A stretch of 38,320 nt of DNA. Source: a virus. Below the pieces are notes generated by a model. That model had not been told where the DNA came from. It worked only from the letters and a program-made list of their open reading frames with translations, and made no database searches. Positions 17,563 to 33,093 of the stretch are shown here, piece by piece; within the stretch, counting starts at the first letter, position 1, and each line of letters begins with the position of its first letter. Both the position numbers and the translations under genes were made by a program. The stretch lies in the IMG/VR virus record IMGVR_UViG_3300029944_000028. The stretch is one strand, 5' to 3'.

Positions 17563-18062
17563 ATCCTTATGTACTGCTCGGCGCACTGGTAGCGGCAATT
17601 GGCCTTGCCGCAGGGGGCTACTCCTACGGGCACCACCAGGAGGCGCTAGCCTTCAACGCTTTCAAGGCAGAGCAGGCTGCTGTCGCGGAGAAAGCCGCCG
17701 CCGACTCGGAAGCCCGCGCCCGCGCCGCTGAACAAGCGGCTTCGATCAACTTGGCGCAAGTTGCGTCAACCTATCAGGAGCAGGTCAATGCGCTCACTAA
17801 AACTCGCGATTCCCTTATCGCTTCTGCCGGTACTGTTCATCGGGTGTACGTCCGTGTCGCCAGTCCCGGTGCAGTTGTCGTGCCCCAAACTGCCGCCGGT
17901 GGATCCGGCGATAACGCAACAGGTATCGCCGCATTGGATAGCCGATCTGCAAGCTTTTTCTACAACGAATTCGCAGCCGCTGATCAGCTCGCCTACCAAC
18001 TCGCTGCCGCCCAAAAAGTGATTGCCGCTGACCGAGTGACTTGCAACGGAGCCGCGCCTTGA
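17559..18062 (+). CDS. Rz: i-spanin (Rz-like)
   Basis: N-terminal TM LLGALVAAIGLAAGGY, then an Ala/Glu-rich coiled region. ATGA coupling to the holin gene. Contains an embedded +1 lipoprotein ORF. Confidence 0.75.
   Translation: MNPYVLLGALVAAIGLAAGGYSYGHHQEALAFNAFKAEQAAVAEKAAADSEARARAAEQAASINLAQVASTYQEQVNALTKTRDSLIASAGTVHRVYVRVASPGAVVVPQTAAGGSGDNATGIAALDSRSASFFYNEFAAADQLAYQLAAAQKVIAADRVTCNGAAP
17788..18021 (+). CDS. Rz1: o-spanin (Rz1-like lipoprotein) embedded in Rz
   Basis: MRSLKLAIPLSLLPVLFIGC lipobox-like signal, Pro-rich mature part, lying wholly inside the Rz gene in another frame. Confidence 0.7.
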   Translation: MRSLKLAIPLSLLPVLFIGCTSVSPVPVQLSCPKLPPVDPAITQQVSPHWIADLQAFSTTNSQPLISSPTNSLPPKK

Positions 18063-18622
18063 ACAACCTGGTTAAAATCGCGCAGGGAATCGATACCGCG
18101 CCCTTGCTACTTGAGATTGCGCGTCAGCCCAACCTCTGGAACCGGCACGGCGTGCGCAAAACTGCGCCTGACACGCCGCATGCCGCGATGGACGATATCT
18201 GGCTTCGGTATAACGACGAGAAGCCGTTCAAGGAGTCAGGCGACTACTCGACGTTTAACGACGAACACGATGCCAAGTTCTATCCCGAATGGTTTGCGCT
18301 TCCGAGCGCGCGGCCCCTCGTCTACGGCATGATGGCGCGCGTCCAGGCGGTGCGCCTGGGTGGCGTGATGATCACGCGCATCCCCGCAGGCGGGAAGATC
18401 GAACCGCATTCGGACAAGGGCTGGCACGCAACGTATTACAATACGAAATTGTATGTCGTCTTGCAGTCCAATCCGCAGTGCGTGAACCGCGTGGAAGAAG
18501 AGCGCGTCGCGATGGCTCCGGGCGAAGTCTGGTACTTCGACAACACGATCGAGCACGAAGTCACGAATGACGGCCCGGATGACCGGATTACTTTGATTAT
18601 TTGCTTACGGTGCGAACGCTAA
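18059..18622 (+). CDS. Asp/Asn(Arg) beta-hydroxylase-family Fe(II)/2OG oxygenase
   Basis: IEPHSDKGWH...GEVWYFDNTIEHEVTN...DRITLI matches the HxD...H facial triad layout of the family. TTG start after GGAG, overlapping the Rz stop (the alternative TTG at 18041 gives the longer track ORF). Confidence 0.7.
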   Translation: MNNLVKIAQGIDTAPLLLEIARQPNLWNRHGVRKTAPDTPHAAMDDIWLRYNDEKPFKESGDYSTFNDEHDAKFYPEWFALPSARPLVYGMMARVQAVRLGGVMITRIPAGGKIEPHSDKGWHATYYNTKLYVVLQSNPQCVNRVEEERVAMAPGEVWYFDNTIEHEVTNDGPDDRITLIICLRCER

Positions 18623-18954
18623 TGCCTGCACACGCCGCTTGGGAGATCGGATACGCCTTAGGTCACGCGAATGACCACATAAAGCACCACTCGGTTGGCG
18701 GAGTGTACGCCCGCGAACAGGCGCTCAAGGCCGGTAAGAAGGTCGAAAAACACGAGCACACCTACGACCACCTGTCGTTTTTGTGCTCCGGTTCGGCTGT
18801 TCTCGAAGTGGACGGGGACATGCAAGTTATTCACGCGCCTCATGCAATTGAAGTCAAGGCCGGCAAGAAACATCAGATTCTCGCAATCACCGATATCGTC
18901 TGGCTTTGCATCCACGCGGAAAGCGTCGCAGATCCAGAAATAGCTAAGGAGTAA
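18622..18954 (+). CDS. Small cupin-fold protein, 110 aa
   Basis: KHEHTYDH...H pattern with beta-rich spacing. TAATG coupling to the oxygenase gene. Confidence 0.5.
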   Translation: MPAHAAWEIGYALGHANDHIKHHSVGGVYAREQALKAGKKVEKHEHTYDHLSFLCSGSAVLEVDGDMQVIHAPHAIEVKAGKKHQILAITDIVWLCIHAESVADPEIAKE

Positions 18955-20039: not shown

Positions 20040-21629
20040 ATGACAACCCCTTACGTCCCCCTCGTAAACGGCGCTCAACAGTACGCGGATCTACGCGATC
20101 AGCGCGCGCGATACCAGATCGGCATGGCGCAGTTCCAGCAGCAGCAGCAAGACCGCCAACGCCAGCAAGCCGCGATGCAGGCGGCGGGGAATGCGTTGCC
20201 GCAACTTCTGCCGAGCGGGCAGGTTGCTGCGCAACCCGGTCAAGGGCAAATGCCGCCCCCGCCTCAAGCCCCGGCGCCCGGTCAGCCCTCGCAGCCGATG
20301 CAGCAACCCGGCCAGGGGCAACCACCGCAAGGTATGCCGATGCCCGGTCAGGGCATGCCTCCGGGGCAGCAGCAAGTCAACCAACCGCCGTTACCCCCTG
20401 GCGGCGCGCAAGGTCAGCCCCAACAGCCTCCGCCGTTCCGACCTATGCCGACTAGCCCGCCGACTAGCCCGCCGCCTCAGCAACAGGCTGCGCCGGCTGC
20501 TATCGCTCCGCCGCCCCAATCGCCTCAGCAACAGCCGCAAGCACCTCAGCAATCGGGGCCGCTCACCCTAGAAAGCGCGGTCAAGGTGCTGCAAGGTCAA
20601 GGGCTGTCGGGGGCCGACCTAATGGCAGGCTTGCAGCAACTTACGCCTTTGCTCGATAGCCAAGCCAAGCAGCAGGCGAACCAGTTGCAAACGCAGTTCA
20701 ACAATGAGTTGAAGCTGCAAGCGGTTTCGGATCGGCACGACCAAATGGCTGAGCGTGTGCGCGAAGCGGATCAACGCGCACAAGATCGACAAGCGTCCCT
20801 CGCGGATCGGCAGCAGGCGCGCGCTGAGTCGAACGCGTTGCGCGGTGAAACCATCCAATTGCGCAAGCAGCAAATCGCGATGAGTAACGGGGATGACGCT
20901 AAGTTCTCGCCGGACGACCTGAAGTTCCTCGCGCAACAGGCACGCGCAGGCGATACGTCCGTCTACCAAAACCTCGGTCGCGGCGCGCAGGGCGCAAAGA
21001 ACATCATCGCCTTGCGTCGCGAAGTGATGAAACAGACCCAGGAGGCGGGCGGCACGGGAGCGGACGTGGCTGCGTCGAATGCCGGGTTCCAGGGCGAGAA
21101 AGCAGCAGCGCGCACGGGCGCCACCAAAGCGGCGAATGTCGGCATGGCCGTCACTGAAGCGCAGCAAACTTTCCCGCTGGTCCGGCAAGCCTCTGCCGCG
21201 CTGCCGCGTACGGAGTTTCCTGGCGTCAACCGGGCGCTGCAAGCTGCACAAACAGGTACGGGCGACCCGCGTGTTATCGCGCTCGGTACGGCGTTGAACA
21301 CATCGGTGAACGCTTACGCTCGCGCTATCAGCCCTTCGGGCACGCCTACCGTGTCCGACAAGGAACATGCGCGTGAGCTGCTGAATACGGCCAGCACCCC
21401 CGAGCAACTGAACGCTGTTCTCGGTATGATGGAAAAGGAAATGGCGGCGGCATCCAAAGCCCCGACCGAAGTCATGAACCGTCAGAAAGCGCGCATCTCA
21501 GGGCGCGACCAGCCGTCCGCGTCCGATACCGGCACGCCTGTTCGCATCTCTTCCGACTCGGAATACAACGCGCTACCGTCCGGGGCTGAGTTCACCGCTC
21601 CCGATGGCTCGCACCGGAGAAAACCGTAA
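20040..21629 (+). CDS. P/Q-rich N-terminus plus coiled-coil protein, 529 aa (internal virion protein candidate)
   Basis: ORF track. About 150 aa of QPGQG/PPP low complexity, then a charged helical region. Confidence 0.55.
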   Translation: MTTPYVPLVNGAQQYADLRDQRARYQIGMAQFQQQQQDRQRQQAAMQAAGNALPQLLPSGQVAAQPGQGQMPPPPQAPAPGQPSQPMQQPGQGQPPQGMPMPGQGMPPGQQQVNQPPLPPGGAQGQPQQPPPFRPMPTSPPTSPPPQQQAAPAAIAPPPQSPQQQPQAPQQSGPLTLESAVKVLQGQGLSGADLMAGLQQLTPLLDSQAKQQANQLQTQFNNELKLQAVSDRHDQMAERVREADQRAQDRQASLADRQQARAESNALRGETIQLRKQQIAMSNGDDAKFSPDDLKFLAQQARAGDTSVYQNLGRGAQGAKNIIALRREVMKQTQEAGGTGADVAASNAGFQGEKAAARTGATKAANVGMAVTEAQQTFPLVRQASAALPRTEFPGVNRALQAAQTGTGDPRVIALGTALNTSVNAYARAISPSGTPTVSDKEHARELLNTASTPEQLNAVLGMMEKEMAAASKAPTEVMNRQKARISGRDQPSASDTGTPVRISSDSEYNALPSGAEFTAPDGSHRRKP

Positions 21630-23566
21630 TGGCAGGCTGGCAAGACGCACCGTTAGTAAGCGCGGGCGGAGGTAAAGCCGCGTGGGAAAGTGCGCCCGTC
21701 GTCAACCCCTCCGCGCCGTCGGCGGGGAAACCGCCTGAACAGCCTCCGCAGAACATGACTGCCTTTGTCGGCGGCAACTTGTCCAAAGGCGTGGCTGATG
21801 TCGCGGGTTTACCGGTCGATCTCGCAAATTCCGCTATTGAAGGCGTGAAGGGCTTGGCAAATGCAGGCGGCGCGAAACTGAAGGCAGAACAAACCCCTGT
21901 CGGCGGTTCGGAATGGATCAAGCAACAGCTTTCGAAGATTGGATCGATAGGCCCGAGTGCGGAACCGCGCACCCCCGGTCAGCGCATTGTTGCCGCTGGC
22001 TTAGAAGCCGCGCCTTCGGCTGTCCTGCCGGGGGGCGGTGCGAAGGCACTTCCGCGTATCGGTGCAGCAGCAGGTAGCGGCGCAGGAGGCGAAGTCGGCC
22101 GGCAAATCGGTGGCGTGCCGGGACAGATCGCCGGATCGCTGGTTGGTGGCGGCCTCGGCGGTATGGCAGGTGCAGAGAAGGGTATTCCGAAGCCGCCTTC
22201 CGAAGCCGCGCGCGCGTCCGATTCTTCGGGGATTCCGCTGACGATCGGGCAAGAAAGCGGAAGCAAGGTGCTGACCGGCGTAGAGAATAAACTCCGCGAG
22301 TTGTTCACTTCGTCGGGCGTAGCACATCGCGACGCGTTGAATCAGGCGGTAGCAGGCGCGAACAGCGTGGAGAAGCTCGCGGGCCAGGTGGCGGGCGCGA
22401 CAGCTAACCCGGAGCAAATCGGTAACCAGCTGCGCTCCGCCTATAAGACTACCGTTTCACGACTGGCTGACGTGCGCAGCAAGCAAGCGACGGCAGATTA
22501 TGGCGACGTGCGTAAGGTAGCGGGCGATGCGCCCGTGATCAAGTACCAAAATACGCTCGACGCCCTCGACAAGATAATCGCGGAAAATAAGAACGTGCCC
22601 GCTGGGGATTCGGTCAAGGTCGCGAAACAGGCGCAATCAATGCGCGATCTTCTAGCGGAGCAAGGTACCGCAACCGTCAACGATGCGATGAAGACGCGCA
22701 GTGCGTGGGGGAAGGCGGCGGCGCGTAGCGGCAACATTTTTTCCGACATTGACCCGAACGCAAATCAGCTTCTCGCCAAGCGCCTGTTCGGCGCGGTCAA
22801 TGCGGACTTCGATGCTGCGAGCACGGCTCAAACTCCTATCGCCCAGGCGTTGAAGAAGGCGAATACGAACTACGCCAAAGCGTCGCAGTCGATAGACTTC
22901 GTTGCGAAGTCCGCGCTCGGCAAGCTCCTGGGCGAAGACGTAACCGATGCTATGGGTAGTGGGCAGACAGCAAGCACCAAAGCGCCGGAGTTGATCGCAA
23001 AACGCTACCTCGACATGACGCCAAGTCAATCGCGGTCTGTGACTTCTATTCTGAAGCGTAATGCGCCCGACGTGCTTCAACAGGCGAAAGCTTTCGTCTT
23101 GAAAAACGGCCTTGAGCAGGCGAAAAACGATACTCCCGGCGCGCTGCCAATTTCGTTTGCCAAGTTCCGAAGCCAGATGGACAAGGTAGAACCCAAGATG
23201 AAAGAGATGGGCTTTACGCCGAAAGAAATTCAAAGCATTAAAGATATCACGGACACAATGGCACGCGCGGGTGACCGGACAGGTAAGAATCCTTCCGGGA
23301 CGGCAGCATCCGCGCAAGCGGGCGGCATCGCCGGTGCGGCATTCGTCCACCCACTTGCGGCACTCGGCGCGGCGGCGACGCCTTTCATCTTGTCAAAAGC
23401 CTTGCTTACGGACAAGGGGCGCGACTTGCTGCGCGCCGCGATGAGCAAGACAAACGGCAAGGGGCAAGCGGCGGCACTCGGCGCGCTGCGCGGATTGATG
23501 CCCGCTGCTAGTCAGAGTGGTGCGGCGCAAGCACCAACAGGGCAGCTAGCATCACCGCCTCAATGA
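21629..23566 (+). CDS. Large virion/ejection protein candidate, 645 aa
   Basis: ORF track; TAATG coupling to the previous gene. No catalytic motif recognised. Confidence 0.5.
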   Translation: MAGWQDAPLVSAGGGKAAWESAPVVNPSAPSAGKPPEQPPQNMTAFVGGNLSKGVADVAGLPVDLANSAIEGVKGLANAGGAKLKAEQTPVGGSEWIKQQLSKIGSIGPSAEPRTPGQRIVAAGLEAAPSAVLPGGGAKALPRIGAAAGSGAGGEVGRQIGGVPGQIAGSLVGGGLGGMAGAEKGIPKPPSEAARASDSSGIPLTIGQESGSKVLTGVENKLRELFTSSGVAHRDALNQAVAGANSVEKLAGQVAGATANPEQIGNQLRSAYKTTVSRLADVRSKQATADYGDVRKVAGDAPVIKYQNTLDALDKIIAENKNVPAGDSVKVAKQAQSMRDLLAEQGTATVNDAMKTRSAWGKAAARSGNIFSDIDPNANQLLAKRLFGAVNADFDAASTAQTPIAQALKKANTNYAKASQSIDFVAKSALGKLLGEDVTDAMGSGQTASTKAPELIAKRYLDMTPSQSRSVTSILKRNAPDVLQQAKAFVLKNGLEQAKNDTPGALPISFAKFRSQMDKVEPKMKEMGFTPKEIQSIKDITDTMARAGDRTGKNPSGTAASAQAGGIAGAAFVHPLAALGAAATPFILSKALLTDKGRDLLRAAMSKTNGKGQAAALGALRGLMPAASQSGAAQAPTGQLASPPQ

Positions 23567-23595: not shown

Positions 23596-23847
23596 TCAGT
23601 ACCTCGGCACAGGACCGTAAGGCCCGTACTGACGGTTTTGCAGTTGGGCGTTCAGGTTCATTTGCTCCATCGCCTGCGCTTGGCGTTGCAAGGCTTCGGT
23701 TTGCTGATAGGCCTGTTGTTGTGCTTTAAGTTGCTGCATTTCATACGATCGACATCGCATGTCGCGCATGGGGTCGTTAGTCGAGGGGCAGAAAGCATTA
23801 GCGACGATGGGCGACGCGGCGAGCAGCAAGGCGAGAATGAGTTTCAT
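23596..23847 (-). CDS. Secreted small Q-rich protein, 83 aa (moron)
   Basis: Signal peptide MKLILALLLAASPIVANA with an AxA site. Has its own conserved promoter and the GGAGATCACC SD. Antisense to the flanking genes. Confidence 0.7.
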   Translation of the reverse strand: MKLILALLLAASPIVANAFCPSTNDPMRDMRCRSYEMQQLKAQQQAYQQTEALQRQAQAMEQMNLNAQLQNRQYGPYGPVPRY

Positions 23848-23870: not shown

Positions 23871-23899
23871 ACTATAGCAGTTGCAAAACGAGAATACAA
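23871..23899 (-). promoter_or_regulatory. Conserved-family promoter, copy 2 (TTGTAT-17-TGcTATAGT)
   Basis: Minus strand reads GCATTGTATTCTCGTTTTGCAACTGCTATAGTGG. The -35 overlaps ATG 23899 of the PurD-like gene. Confidence 0.65.
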
Positions 23900-25245
23900 T
23901 GCGAATTTTGGTGATCGATGTTGGTTCTAACGCTCTCGACTTGTGCATGCGCTGGCAGCAGCAAGGCCACGAGGTGCGCTGGTACGACAAGCCGCGCCCG
24001 GACGGCACGGACCGGCACGCAGGCGAAGGCATCGTCACCAAGATCACGGACTTCGGCGATTTGCGCAAGAAGTGGATCGGCTGGGCCGATATGATCTACA
24101 CCCCTGACAACGTGTGCTATCTCGATTTGCTTGAACCGTACCGCAAGATCGGCTACCCGGTTTTCGGCTGCAATCTCGACGCCGTAGAGTGGGAATTGGA
24201 CCGTGAAGTCGGGCAGAAAGTCATGGAAGAGTGCGGACTGAAGACGATTCCCGGCAAGACGTTTCACGATTACGACACCGCCACGGCGTACGTGAAAAAG
24301 CACGGCAAGGCCTTCGTTTCGAAGCCCTCGGGCGATGGTGAGCGCGCCATGTCCTATGTCGCAAACAACGCCGCCGATCTGGTCTACATGTTGCAGCGCT
24401 GGAAGGGCGTCGATAAATACCGTAAAGCCGCGAAGGAAATGGGTTTTATCCTCCAGGAGAAGGTGAACGGCGTTGCCGAGATGGCGGTCGGCGGATGGTT
24501 CATCCCAGGCGTTGGCTGGTCGAAAGCCGGATGGGTTGAAAACTTCGAGCACAAGTCCCTCTTCGCTGGCGACCTGGGCGTAGCCACGGGGGAGATGGGT
24601 ACGATCGTGCGCGTCGTGAAGAAGTCAAAACTCGCTGACATGATGCTTAAACCGATCACCGATCACCTTCACGCGGTTGGTTATGTCGGCTATGTTGACG
24701 TGGCCACAATTATCGACGAAGACGGTACGCCTTGGCCTCTTGAATTCACCATGCGCGACGGATGGCCTATCCGCCACAACCTGACATCGCTCATTGAAGG
24801 CGACCAAGCGCAGTGGATGCTCGATGCGCTCAATGGGCGCGATACGCTGAAGATCAAGACCGATTTGGTGAGCGCGAGTGTCGTTATGGCGCTGCCGGAC
24901 TTCCCATACTCCCGCATCACGAACCGCGAACTGTGTGGCATTCCGGTCTATGGTGCCGAAGACTTAGCGCACCTCCACTGGTCGGAAATGATGATCGGTG
25001 ATGCGCCGCGCGAGGTGAACGGGAAAGTTGTCGACCTGCCGGGGCCGGTTACGGCGGGTGATTACACCCTGGTCGCGACCGGCGAAGGCGCGACCGTTTC
25101 CGGCGCTCGGCGAAGCGTGTACAGTGCGATCAAGAAAGTTAAAGTACCGAACAGCCCCTTCTATCGCGTCGATATCGGTTCGAAGATGCGAAAGCAGTTA
25201 CCGGTTCTTCAGGCTCTCGGATTTGCAATAGGAATGGAGTATTGA
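23899..25245 (+). CDS. PurD-like ATP-grasp ligase (phosphoribosylamine-glycine ligase homologue)
   Basis: Collinear with E. coli PurD as I recall it: MRILVID, FVSKPSGDG, ILQEKVNGVE, FEHKSLFAGDLGVATGEMG, PLEFTMRDG, and C-terminal VATGEGATVSGARRSVYSAIKKV...YRVDIG. Confidence 0.75.
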   Translation: MRILVIDVGSNALDLCMRWQQQGHEVRWYDKPRPDGTDRHAGEGIVTKITDFGDLRKKWIGWADMIYTPDNVCYLDLLEPYRKIGYPVFGCNLDAVEWELDREVGQKVMEECGLKTIPGKTFHDYDTATAYVKKHGKAFVSKPSGDGERAMSYVANNAADLVYMLQRWKGVDKYRKAAKEMGFILQEKVNGVAEMAVGGWFIPGVGWSKAGWVENFEHKSLFAGDLGVATGEMGTIVRVVKKSKLADMMLKPITDHLHAVGYVGYVDVATIIDEDGTPWPLEFTMRDGWPIRHNLTSLIEGDQAQWMLDALNGRDTLKIKTDLVSASVVMALPDFPYSRITNRELCGIPVYGAEDLAHLHWSEMMIGDAPREVNGKVVDLPGPVTAGDYTLVATGEGATVSGARRSVYSAIKKVKVPNSPFYRVDIGSKMRKQLPVLQALGFAIGMEY

Positions 25246-25247
25246 TT

Positions 25248-25400
25248 ATGCCTGCTAAAAGTAAGGTTCAGTCCAGAGCTATGCACGCCGCTGCCGAAGG
25301 CAAATCTTCCAAAGTGCCAGCGAAAGTCGGCAAGAAGTTTGTCGAAGAGCAGCACGGCAAAAACCTGAAGCGGCTTCCTGAACGGCGGACCCGGAAATGA
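25248..25400 (+). CDS. Small conserved KSKxQxRAM...LPER protein, 50 aa (DUF3008-like by recollection)
   Basis: ATG 25248 to TGA 25398, MPAKSKVQSRAMHAAAEGKSSKVP...LKRLPERRTRK. ATGA coupling to the next gene. Confidence 0.55.
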   Translation: MPAKSKVQSRAMHAAAEGKSSKVPAKVGKKFVEEQHGKNLKRLPERRTRK

Positions 25401-25930
25401 CCAGTGAAGCGCGAAAAGCCGGTCTGATTTCCGAGTCGTCGATCAAATCAGCTTTGACCGAGGCGAAAGGGGACCTGTTCCTTGCCGCCTGCGCGCTCAG
25501 CTGCACCGCTCGCGAGCTCGACCAGTACATCCGACGCTCCGCTACGCTCCAAGCCTTCGCGGGGGCCGTAGAGCAAGTGAAGATCGACCCGGCGTACTCG
25601 CGACTGAGCACCGAACAGTTCGAAAACCAAGTGGCGGACCTTGCTCGATCCTTCCGGGTAGACGGAATAAAGGAAGTCCATAAACTCGCGACCATGGAGT
25701 TCGGCGATAGCGCCGCCCTCGCCAAAGTCAAACTCGATGCTGCACTCGCGCTTAGCGCTGGTGCTCGTTCGCACGCCGGTAATAGCGAGACTGAGACGGC
25801 CCTCGCTGAATTGAACGCTCTTTATCATGCCAATGCTCCTCGAATCAAAGAGATTCGTCAGACGGTGATAACGCTTCGAGATGATCGGGAAGCGACTCCA
25901 CTAACAATCGAACAGCGGACAAATCCTTAA
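25397..25930 (+). CDS. Helical protein with possible N-terminal HTH, 177 aa (DNA-binding; weak small-terminase candidate)
   Basis: ORF track with balanced composition. The antisense ORF 25279..25731 is S/R/A-rich and rejected. Confidence 0.5.
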   Translation: MTSEARKAGLISESSIKSALTEAKGDLFLAACALSCTARELDQYIRRSATLQAFAGAVEQVKIDPAYSRLSTEQFENQVADLARSFRVDGIKEVHKLATMEFGDSAALAKVKLDAALALSAGARSHAGNSETETALAELNALYHANAPRIKEIRQTVITLRDDREATPLTIEQRTNP

Positions 25931-29381: not shown

Positions 29382-30027
29382 TTACTCCTTAACAAATTCA
29401 ATGAACTCAATGAACTCGCCCTTCGTGTTCAGGACGTACCACGTGTCAGCTTTGATACCGTTCTCGCCGACATAGGCGACAGCGATGCGCGGTCGGTTAT
29501 CGTCATCCCAGCGTAGTGCGAAGCAGCAACCTTCCGCCCCCCTTGGCGCGCGCCCCTACGCCGGCTGCCATCGCCACACCGTGCTTCCCATTTATTTCCT
29601 GCGTGCTGGAGTAGCCGCTCGCTGCCTGCGTGCTGTGGTCGCCGCTCGCTGCCTGCGTGCTGTAGTAGCTTTCCGTTTCGGTATCCTTGACATCCTTCAC
29701 CAGATCCACCACGAACTCGATTGCGTTGGTTACGATCTGCGGGATGCCGATCTCGGCTTTAACCGTGATTCGGCCAGACGCGATCTTGGAGTCCTGACCT
29801 TCACGGTTCAGTTCACCAGACAACTCGACGACACAGAAACGCGAGTCCGTAACCGGGTAGTACGTCCACATGTCCAACGGGTTCTCGCACGCATGAAAGC
29901 CAGATTCGCACGCAAGCACCTTGCCAGCGTGCTCATAGGTCTTGCCAATCTCATATTGGAAGCCGCGGCATTTCAAGTCCTTATCGAACGCCTTATACGC
30001 CAAGACTACCTTCGTTTCTTGTGTCAT
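29382..30027 (-). pseudogene. DUF7666-like gene split by a frameshift at a G6 run (pseudogene, sequencing error or programmed +1 shift)
   Basis: Frame A (30027 to stop 29503) gives MTQETKVVLAYKAFDKDLKCRGFQYEIGKTYE...GFHACENPLD plus STQAASG repeats. Frame B from the run 29537-29542 to TAA 29382 gives ...RWDDDNRPRIAVAYVGENGIKADTWYVLNTKGEF.... The span is 646 nt, which is 3n+1. Confidence 0.6.
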
Positions 30028-30058
30028 TTTCGTTTCCTTCGGTTGTGTTTGTGATTCC

Positions 30059-30087
30059 ACTATAGCAGTTGCAAAACAGAAAAACAA
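30059..30087 (-). promoter_or_regulatory. Conserved-family promoter, copy 3 (TTGTTT-17-TGcTATAGT), internal to the leftward operon
   Basis: Minus strand reads TGATTGTTTTTCTGTTTTGCAACTGCTATAGTGG, abutting the polymerase stop. Confidence 0.65.
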
Positions 30088-32490: not shown

Positions 32491-33093
32491 TTACGCGAGG
32501 TCGTCTTCCGCGTCGATGGCATCGAAACCTTCATCGGAAGGTCGCGATGCGCCGCCGAAGCTGTCGCCCGGACCGTCGAACTGCACGCCCAGGAGCCCGC
32601 AACGCATACCGCTATACGTGCCTGACTGTGCCCACATCTCTACCTTCGCGTTCACATAGCAGCCGGCGTAGATTACGCCTTCGGAACCCGTCAGGCGAAG
32701 CGCTTTACCGAAATGCTTGGAGTCAGGATCGCCATCCTTGATGTTGTGGAGAAAGAGCGGCGCACCGTCCTTCTGCTTGCGAATCGCGGACAGCGCGAAC
32801 ATGTTCTCGAAGCCGTCGTAGATTTCGCCGACTTTGTCTTTCTTGTTTTTGATGTACGAAAACTTGTTTTTGTTCGTGCGCATGTCTTCAAGGAAGGCTT
32901 CAGCCTTTTTGCCCCATGCGGCGGTCGCTTCACCGTTGATCGCGGCCTGAATCGCCTTATCGTTAGCGCTACCCGGCTCAACGATCAGCGTGCACGAGTG
33001 GCGGAAGTCGCCTTGGCCTTCGTACTGCGCCGGCGTGAACAGGTCGTCGATAAACGCGATGCGCACGTGCTTGAGTTGAACAATGGTTCCCAT
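32491..33093 (-). CDS. DUF2815-type phage ssDNA-binding protein
   Basis: VRIAFIDDLFTP start typical of the family by recollection. Acidic C-terminal tail DAIDAEDDLA. Position between nuclease and polymerase. Confidence 0.65.
   Translation of the reverse strand: MGTIVQLKHVRIAFIDDLFTPAQYEGQGDFRHSCTLIVEPGSANDKAIQAAINGEATAAWGKKAEAFLEDMRTNKNKFSYIKNKKDKVGEIYDGFENMFALSAIRKQKDGAPLFLHNIKDGDPDSKHFGKALRLTGSEGVIYAGCYVNAKVEMWAQSGTYSGMRCGLLGVQFDGPGDSFGGASRPSDEGFDAIDAEDDLA

Follow-up and report, generated by a model that had tools for sequence, protein, structure and literature searches.

A PurD-paralogue ATP-grasp ligase with replaced substrate-binding residues, encoded in a putative ejection cassette of podovirus-like phages

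The window analysed here is a whole stretch of viral DNA of 38,320 nucleotides (IMG/VR record IMGVR_UViG_3300029944_000028), and the gene under study is an open reading frame (ORF) that encodes a ligase of 448 amino acids (aa). The ligase is homologous from end to end, far beyond chance, to PurD, the phosphoribosylamine--glycine ligase or glycinamide ribonucleotide (GAR) synthetase (EC 6.3.4.13). The catalytic residues of PurD are kept throughout the family and the substrate-binding residues are replaced, and from this pattern the protein is very probably an active ATP-grasp ligase with new substrates, and is predicted not to be a GAR synthetase. Its gene probably belongs to an ejection cassette. 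The best reading, which has about an even chance of being correct, is that a retargeted ligase is made, packaged and delivered together with the ejection proteins and acts early in the host.

Homology to PurD and replacement of the substrate-binding residues

23899-25245, plus strand: PurD-paralogue ATP-grasp ligase of the viral clade, 448 aa, recognised by its ORF, Pfam and NCBIfam matches, profile, AlphaFold2 (AF2) model and tree

The ORF starts with ATG at 23899 and ends with TGA at 25243-25245. An in-frame TTG upstream at 23881 is an unlikely alternative start, and ATG was preferred because homologues begin with MRIL.ID. Apparent N-terminal extensions of the ligase in several other loci were ORF-calling artefacts. 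The NCBIfam model TIGR00877 aligned with residues 1-430 on profile positions 1-423 of 425 (E 1.3e-26) at 93.5 bits, and the curated cut-off of 288 bits was not reached; relatives of the ligase scored 41-137 bits. In Pfam, GARS_A and GARS_C were matched, the latter under its cut-off, and GARS_N was not detected in the ligase. Eleven PurD structures matched the ligase by sequence, and a profile of 45 family members matched PurD structures at E 1e-57, with the next ATP-grasp family at 5e-6. For the AF2 model (predicted local distance difference test 95.2, predicted template modelling score 0.92), the 15 best Foldseek matches in the PDB were all PurD (E 2.5e-30 to 1e-23, template modelling scores 0.73/0.77). 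A second structural tier was formed by L-amino-acid ligases and biotin carboxylase (E about 1e-18); BacD/YwfE and the biotin carboxylase-type ATP-grasp enzymes have the same general chemistry, but they are far more distant than PurD and have different N and C domains. The TIGR00877 alignment and the Foldseek matches cover the whole N-B-A-C fold of PurD, in agreement with the preliminary description of this DNA, which was made from the letters alone and had reported a 448-aa ORF resembling PurD over its whole length.

Compared with solved PurD structures (1GSO, 2YW2, 2XCL, 2QK4), the ligase has the same four-domain fold, ATP-binding Lys, hinge, Mg-binding Glu, acyl-phosphate Arg and C-terminal R-x-D-I-G motif, and the acyl-phosphate chemistry is presumably the same. 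Unlike them, it has an identity of only 21-24%, a score of one third of the cut-off, no GGREHA and no GLAAGK, EHKS in place of DHKR and EFTMRDGWPI in place of EFNxRFGDPE, an extra C-terminal helix, a hairpin insertion in the C domain and no purine-pathway context. The segments concerned are as follows.

23917-23940, plus strand: N-domain loop D7-V-G-S-N-A-L-D14 in place of the phosphate-binding GxGGREHA; Arg and Glu lost, acidic D7 and D14 conserved in the family
24313-24354, plus strand: FVSK142PSGDGERAMS, with the ATP-binding Lys kept (128 of 129 viral sequences) and no GLAAGK
24547-24603, plus strand: E217-H-K219-S ... T-G-E-M-G-T235 (DHKR ... NTGGMGA in PurD), with E217, K219 and G234 near-invariant
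24736-24771, plus strand: P-L-E282-F-T284-M-R286-D-G-W289-P-I291 (EFNxRFGDPE in PurD), with the Mg-binding Glu and the acyl-phosphate Arg kept
25156-25242, plus strand: C-domain motif YR423-x-D425-IG in common with PurD, then a conserved C-terminal helix (LP.L...G) reaching about 15 residues past the PurD end

Residue roles were taken from work on the human and Geobacillus PurD enzymes (PMC2978367, PMC8880213). R13 and E14 of the GGREHA loop bind the phosphate and ribose of phosphoribosylamine (PRA) (PMC2978367), while glycine is bound by D217, R292, D295 and E297, the ATP ligands are K103, K143, E185, E192 and K214, and the B-loop GLAAGK touches the ATP gamma-phosphate (PMC2978367, PMC8880213). 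The substrate-binding columns were scored in an alignment of E. coli PurD with 79 diverse members of the family, and a larger alignment of 129 viral and 100 cellular sequences was used for comparison of the clades.

Among the 79 members, the catalytic columns were kept at E99 (79), R102 (74), K142 (78), Q186 (70), E194 (76), E217 (77, Asp in PurD), K219 (75), E282 (76), R286 (78), G288 (75), P290 (75), R423 (79) and D425 (76). The hallmarks of ATP-grasp enzymes, namely the Lys K142, Q186 and the hinge acid E194, the Mg-binding Glu E282 and the acyl-phosphate Arg R286, are each present in 70 to 79 members. The substrate columns have changed. The column of PurD R11 is variable, with no Arg among its six commonest residues, and in the larger alignment it is a gap in 122 of 129 viral and in all 100 cellular sequences. 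PurD E12 is replaced by Gly, Ala or Ser, the second Mg ligand N288 by Thr (72 of 79), the general base D293 by Tyr, Trp or Phe (73 of 79; Trp in 114 of 129 viral sequences), and the glycine-binding E295 by Ala, Thr, Ile or Leu. The B-loop GLAAGK reads SGDGERA in the window and G-D-x-x-D-K in the family consensus, the window has R-D-G-W-P-I where PROSITE PS00184 specifies R-[LF]-G-D-P-E, and it has D-V-G-S-N-A-L-D at the GGREHA (G-x-G-G-R-E-H-A) loop. Of six testable features that define PurD, the ligase lacks five. Because the catalytic set is kept and the substrate set is replaced family-wide, the active site is predicted to be that of a neofunctionalised active enzyme and not of a decaying one.

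Strong constraint on catalysis is also indicated by inteins, which were found in 18 family members at four sites, every one within catalytic motifs: GVN/TGEMG (before T230), TGEMG/T (before T235), D.N/C and ExT/xR (after T284), equivalent in the window to about 24586, 24601, 24703 and 24751. A LAGLIDADG endonuclease is present in most of the inteins; one, of about 140 aa, is a mini-intein, and one is in a Burkholderia ubonensis prophage. Intein carriers were P0023, P0122, P0128-P0134, P0141, P0148, P0167, P0188, P0189, P0203, P0224, P0240, P0244, P0246 and P0257.

An ordinary auxiliary PurD that boosts host purine synthesis, which the preliminary description had proposed as one possibility, would agree with the full-length homology and with the automatic annotation "phosphoribosylamine--glycine ligase". 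This explanation is highly improbable given the score of 93.5 against 288 bits and the family-wide loss of GGREHA, of the RFGDPE Asp and Glu and of GLAAGK, with which the PRA- and glycine-binding residues have gone. Among the window ORFs covered by the Pfam or PHROG scans, neither PurF nor any other pur gene that could supply PRA was found, as had also been stated in that description, and PRA is very unstable, with a half-life of about 5 s (PMC2978367). In addition, cellular relatives of the ligase coexist with true PurD and have been curated as not being GAR synthetases: the haloarchaeal rrnAC0307 and Hlac_1553 occur beside a real PurD and were called "not actual" PurD (Brown et al. 2011, PMC3261824). 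At NCBI most of the named cellular relatives have only domain-level names, and three are labelled phosphoribosylamine--glycine ligase. The divergence of the substrate-loop regions noticed at the outset is now counted over the 79 family members, and the general form of the earlier proposal, a retargeted ligase, is consistent with conserved catalytic machinery and substrate pockets rebuilt throughout the family.

Viral clade and cellular sister clade

Exhaustive searching of 1.84 billion representative proteins yielded 1362 matches at E<1e-3 and 142 at E<1e-30, the latter being clusters at 50% identity with viral and cellular sequences counted together. A word-indexed search gave 2131 matches, many of them on contigs of 36-41 kb, and scans of IMG/VR with two sub-alignments gave at least 594 and at least 556 confirmed relatives. 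Among GenBank phages one true relative was found, the metagenomic MW202796.1, with 42% identity and the gene unannotated. No close match to the ligase was found in the BFVD viral structure library. The terminase (TerL) and the major capsid protein of the window have at most 27% identity to those of any deposited phage, and close relatives are prophages in Burkholderia anthina and B. ubonensis. Prophages carrying the gene include those of B. anthina (GCA_003857525.1, contig QTST01000012), B. ubonensis (GCA_001533965.1) and Paraburkholderia sp. C35.

In a neighbour-joining tree without bootstrap (234 sequences, 413 columns), all 89 viral loci and the window form one clade, all 62 cellular sequences form its sister clade, with the window placed outside it, and four canonical PurDs lie across a branch of 0.97. 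Mean identity was 43% among the viral sequences and 59% among the cellular ones, with 31% between the two clades and 23% from either to PurD. Of the two placements considered in the preliminary description, with host PurD or in a phage clade, the tree gives a viral clade that is not grouped with canonical PurD and is sister to a cellular paralogue.

A genome scan gave about 76 chromosomal sequences from archaea and bacteria, including haloarchaea, Nitrosopumilales (Thaumarchaeota), Methanosarcinales, DPANN, the Candidate Phyla Radiation (CPR), Omnitrophota, Bdellovibrio (Bdellovibrionota), Acidobacteriota and others. All 24 cellular sequences examined carry the signature of the family and not that of PurD, and the TIGR00877 scores of the clade are 92-137 bits. 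The clade is highly conserved, with about 60% identity between Haloferax and Acidobacteriota. The cellular genes stand alone in ordinary chromosomal contexts, and no conserved operon partner was detected, no neighbouring family being present in more than 7 of 62 loci. The cellular loci (L253-L332) include Haloferax namakaokahaiae (L279, 10001-11269), Bdellovibrio sp. HCB288 (L299) and L329, L330 and L332.

The extra PurD-like proteins of haloarchaea (rrnAC0307, Hlac_1553) and their clade have the same losses as the viral ligases, with E-H-K-K/R, E-x-T-x-R-x-G-aromatic-P and about 31% identity. The window carries this signature of the orphan paralogue, in which the GARS_N/P-loop and the RFGDPE Asp are lost and E-H-K ... 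E-x-T-x-R-x-G-aromatic-P is present. Unlike the viral clade, the cellular clade is slow-evolving (about 59% mean identity) and stand-alone, without phage neighbours, and pocket residues differ: viral Trp versus cellular Tyr at the former general base, Asp versus Ser in the N-loop, and Ala or Leu versus Thr. On the characterisation of this PurD-like paralogue the literature searches yielded only the remark of 2011 (Brown et al.), and they found no virion ATP-grasp enzyme.

The other matches among GenBank phages were canonical purD genes of the GGREHA type (OR846843.1, OR848135.1, OQ572412.1 and CAKLQH020000004.1; H2-H10). Records with purD include Listeria phage LM 4-11-1, Pseudomonas phage Y11 and Acinetobacter phage MD-2021a, and some purD-bearing phage records are marked UNVERIFIED or are contigs of 230-300 kb. 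The purD in such records is probably host DNA, which would inflate counts of phage purD.

The probable ejection cassette and the predicted role of the ligase

Among 99 non-redundant ligase clusters, 74 had at least 6 kb of upstream DNA. Most of these 74 loci contain a same-strand ladder of three genes, u3 (about 185-300 aa), u2 (350-560 aa) and u1 (500-1721 aa), followed by the ligase. BLAST clustering placed the u3 proteins of 53 of the 74 loci in a single family and the u2 proteins of 39 loci in another, and recovered two families of u1, from 30 and from 19 loci. The family phrog_598, annotated "DNA ejection", was matched by 12 of 18 sampled u3 members (best E 2.5e-28). The start of the ligase gene is overlapped by the upstream large gene in 57 of 84 non-redundant loci, by ATGA in 52 of them, and a gap of 30 nt or less was observed in 10 more. 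When relatives were sampled through an unrelated tail gene (37-75% identity), the ligase was present 6.5-8.1 kb downstream of it in 33 of 34 loci with enough sequence and in 10 of 10 shorter ones, and it is therefore a core gene. Core-gene status and the inteins at four catalytic sites together indicate that the activity matters to the phage.

The cassette resembles those of T7 (gp14/15/16) and P22 (gp7/16/20), in which a small, a medium and a very large fast-evolving protein are encoded as a ladder late in the virion operon, and one of its families belongs to a "DNA ejection" PHROG; in contrast, u1 and u2 have no sequence match to solved ejection proteins. To our knowledge, no classical podovirus ejection cassette ends with an ATP-grasp enzyme.

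In one relative, P0260, the ligase is part of a protein of 1236 aa with an SPP1-type portal domain, a PurD-like domain and a Mu-F domain, encoded directly after TerL and found on three contigs; this protein (L087, 2818-6528) also has an HExxH motif. Its portal-X-MuF architecture is that described for delivered effectors (Iyer et al. 2017, PMC5512222), and a PurD-type ATP-grasp amidoligase is absent from the effectors listed there. In this phage lineage, portal and MuF (SPP1 gp7-like) domains are normally fused in one protein of 680-960 aa; from its variable length, the linker may be a hot spot where cargo domains are inserted, and in P0260 the ligase is found there. The window ligase, like injected and MuF-portal effectors (T4 Alt, the N4 virion RNA polymerase, polyvalent proteins), is encoded among virion and ejection genes; unlike them, it is a free-standing polypeptide whose packaging is putative.

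The genes around the ligase in the window are as follows.

18041-18622, plus strand: Asp/Arg beta-hydroxylase-like cupin (PF05118), 193 aa, E 1e-16
18601-18954, plus strand: Cupin_2 protein, 117 aa
18959-20029, plus strand: low-complexity protein rich in Q, N, G, A, S and Y, 356 aa, in the u3 slot
20040-21629, plus strand: u2, 529 aa, of the family that precedes the ligase across distant phage lineages (hmmsearch E 1e-77)
21629-23566, plus strand: Ala/Gly-rich protein, 645 aa, with one hydrophobic segment (residues 570-594), in the u1 slot
23596-23847, minus strand: ORF of 83 aa with a Sec-type signal peptide (MKLILALLLAASPIVANA) and a Gln-rich, coiled-coil-like body; homologues in 4 related loci
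25248-25400, plus strand: basic protein, 50 aa, co-transcribed, with a GGAG ribosome-binding site, 2 nt past the ligase stop
25397-25930, plus strand: conserved protein, 177 aa, with an ATGA overlap with the 50-aa gene, co-transcribed

A u2 family member was present in 35 of 46 loci of the A3 set. The proteins in the u3 and u1 slots of the window are lineage-specific variants, and the 645-aa u1 is presumed to be an internal virion or ejection protein. Homologues of this 645-aa version are present in only 16 of 51 close loci and the rest have a different family of about 500 aa; u1 is swapped even among close relatives. The cassette evolves very fast around a stable ligase. The 356-aa protein has a prion-like composition (A 19%, G 14%, S 12%, Q 12%, N 12%, Y 8%). 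The cupins are optional in the cassette and, when present, have a fixed slot about 5.3 and 4.7 kb upstream of the ligase. An obligatory partnership between the ligase and the hydroxylase-like cupin was considered and rejected, with co-occurrence in 50 of 51 close relatives and in only 15 of 46 and 1 of 35 in the distant sets.

Modification of a nucleotide or DNA base with glycine or with a different amine or acid was also weighed, since the preliminary description had named such targets. ATP-grasp amidoligases are chemically suited to hypermodification of this kind, and the conserved aromatic Trp289 in the pocket could stack on a base. This explanation is nevertheless very unlikely, and glycine as the group transferred is not favoured: the glycine- and phosphoribosyl-binding residues are lost, and the scanned ORFs of the window include no hydroxymethylase, base kinase, transferase, transglycosylase or other known DNA-modification partner. 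A nucleotide or base target is further disfavoured by the location of the gene with ejection proteins in the late virion operon and not in the replication module on the opposite strand, and by near-identical sites in the cellular sister clade, which consists of stand-alone chromosomal genes. A protein carboxylate, the remaining target named there, is possible in principle.

A second alternative is that the ligase modifies proteins at assembly and is not delivered, joining an amino acid or amine to ejection or virion proteins or cross-linking them. Translational coupling to the preceding large gene (67 of 84 loci) would fit such a modifier, as would the Asp/Asn-hydroxylase-like cupin that some lineages have in a fixed cassette slot, which could belong to a set for post-translational modification, and the loss of the residues that bind the free amine of glycine is compatible with a larger carboxylate. 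The presumed substrates u1, u2 and u3, however, diverge very rapidly and are exchanged even between close relatives, although the ligase site stays constant, the u1 C-termini have no conserved motif, and the structural neighbours are small-molecule ligases (PurD, BacD/YwfE, biotin carboxylase) and not RimK or TTL. A RimK/TTL-like modification of the u1 C-terminus was accordingly rejected as a candidate; the Q/E bias at the u1 C-terminus arises because the ATGA overlap constrains the codons. Cellular paralogues with almost the same pocket have no ejection proteins nearby, so that a general metabolite or target is favoured and action on ejection proteins is weakened. Overall, this alternative is unlikely.

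The third alternative, to which a marginally lower probability is given, is an unpackaged late enzyme that acts on a small molecule in the cytoplasm and carries out the reaction of the cellular paralogue, its gene position reflecting shared late timing only. It agrees with the active-site signature held in common with a widespread stand-alone cellular gene, and there is no direct sign of encapsidation. Against it, the gene keeps its position even between lineages whose ligases are only about 30% identical, its start as a rule overlaps the stop of u1, it is core and not patchy, unlike typical auxiliary metabolic genes, and one relative has the domain between portal and MuF. The clade-specific pocket (W versus Y, D versus S, A/L versus T) speaks against a simply borrowed host function.

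In the mechanism proposed for a packaged and delivered ligase, the enzyme would have descended from the PurD lineage with both substrate pockets rebuilt and would make no GAR. Its gene is core and late in a podovirus-like lineage that is uncultured and in part temperate, and the ligase would be the terminal enzyme of the ejection cassette. It may turn a carboxylate other than glycine, without the free ammonium group, into an acyl phosphate, because the acidic binding residues are gone and an aromatic residue is at the general base. The acyl group would then go to a non-phosphoribosyl nucleophile, plausibly a cationic amine, because the phosphate loop is replaced by a loop with two conserved acidic residues. 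The ligase would be made in step with the ejection proteins and encapsidated with them, and it would enter the host cytoplasm with the DNA and, as infection begins, modify a metabolite or macromolecule of the host. Packaging and delivery were proposed as the simplest model, since the enzyme would meet ATP only in the cytoplasm and its gene is linked to proteins that exit the capsid together with the DNA. Packaging of the ligase in the virion, taken by itself, falls slightly short of an even chance. The wider statement, that many uncultured podovirus-like phages package and inject an ATP-grasp ligase joining a small carboxylate to a host metabolite or macromolecule by chemistry shared with the orphan paralogue, is more tentative still.

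Several observations weigh against a packaged and delivered ligase. No Pfam, PHROG or solved ejection-protein (PDB) match was found for u1 and u2. The 356-aa u3-slot protein of the window has no detectable homology to phrog_598, and the "ejection" label in the window is therefore based on synteny and on the homology of its u2 protein. A stretch of 332 nt with an ORF on the opposite strand parts the window ligase from u1. The 65 relatives of P0260 (P0390-P0454) are portal-MuF fusions without the ligase, so that P0260 represents a single insertion event, and a fusion of a low-complexity protein with the ligase (P0153) is a single, probably frameshifted contig and was not used as evidence. No cultured phage carrying the ligase was found among GenBank phages. 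In the cellular clade an almost identical active site occurs away from any ejection proteins, and the neighbour-joining tree has no bootstrap support values.

The fold and the chemistry are known, and the biological setting is new. If the proposed role is true, the PurD family would have three branches, namely true PurD, the orphan cellular paralogue and the phage sequences, of which there are at least several hundred, and routine mis-annotation as "phosphoribosylamine--glycine ligase" would inflate the counts of purine auxiliary metabolic genes in viromes. An amidoligase would join the few enzymes that travel together with phage DNA, as a new class of delivered enzyme. The prophages of Burkholderia and Paraburkholderia would provide a genetic handle on the reaction, and the phage substrate, once found, would probably explain the cellular paralogue of haloarchaea, Thaumarchaeota, DPANN, CPR and many bacteria.

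Genome of the window

The plus strand of the window carries genes for primase-helicase, terminase, portal, capsid and tail fibre, and the minus strand carries a replication module (polA/SNF2/VRR-NUC/exonuclease/SSB); the window is a podovirus-like genome. The exonuclease is of the PD-(D/E)XK type, and among the module's proteins are one with DUF7666 (E 3e-38) and an ssDNA-binding protein of the Enc34 type (29503-30087 and 32491-33093, both minus strand). No integrase was recognised in the window.

The 83-aa minus-strand ORF between u1 and the ligase interrupts the overlap of these two genes that is typical of relatives, and it is probably a moron (a lysogenic-conversion or exclusion gene). The ligase had been described as the end of the virion operon; its place late in the operon is retained, but two same-strand genes follow it (25248-25400 and 25397-25930). 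In the B. anthina prophage (L001, 11346-14997, corresponding to about 25.4-27.3 kb of the window), genes for a histone deacetylase, a major facilitator superfamily transporter and a porin are present from about 2.5 kb downstream of the ligase, and these host-like genes place the integration junction between the ligase operon and the replication module.

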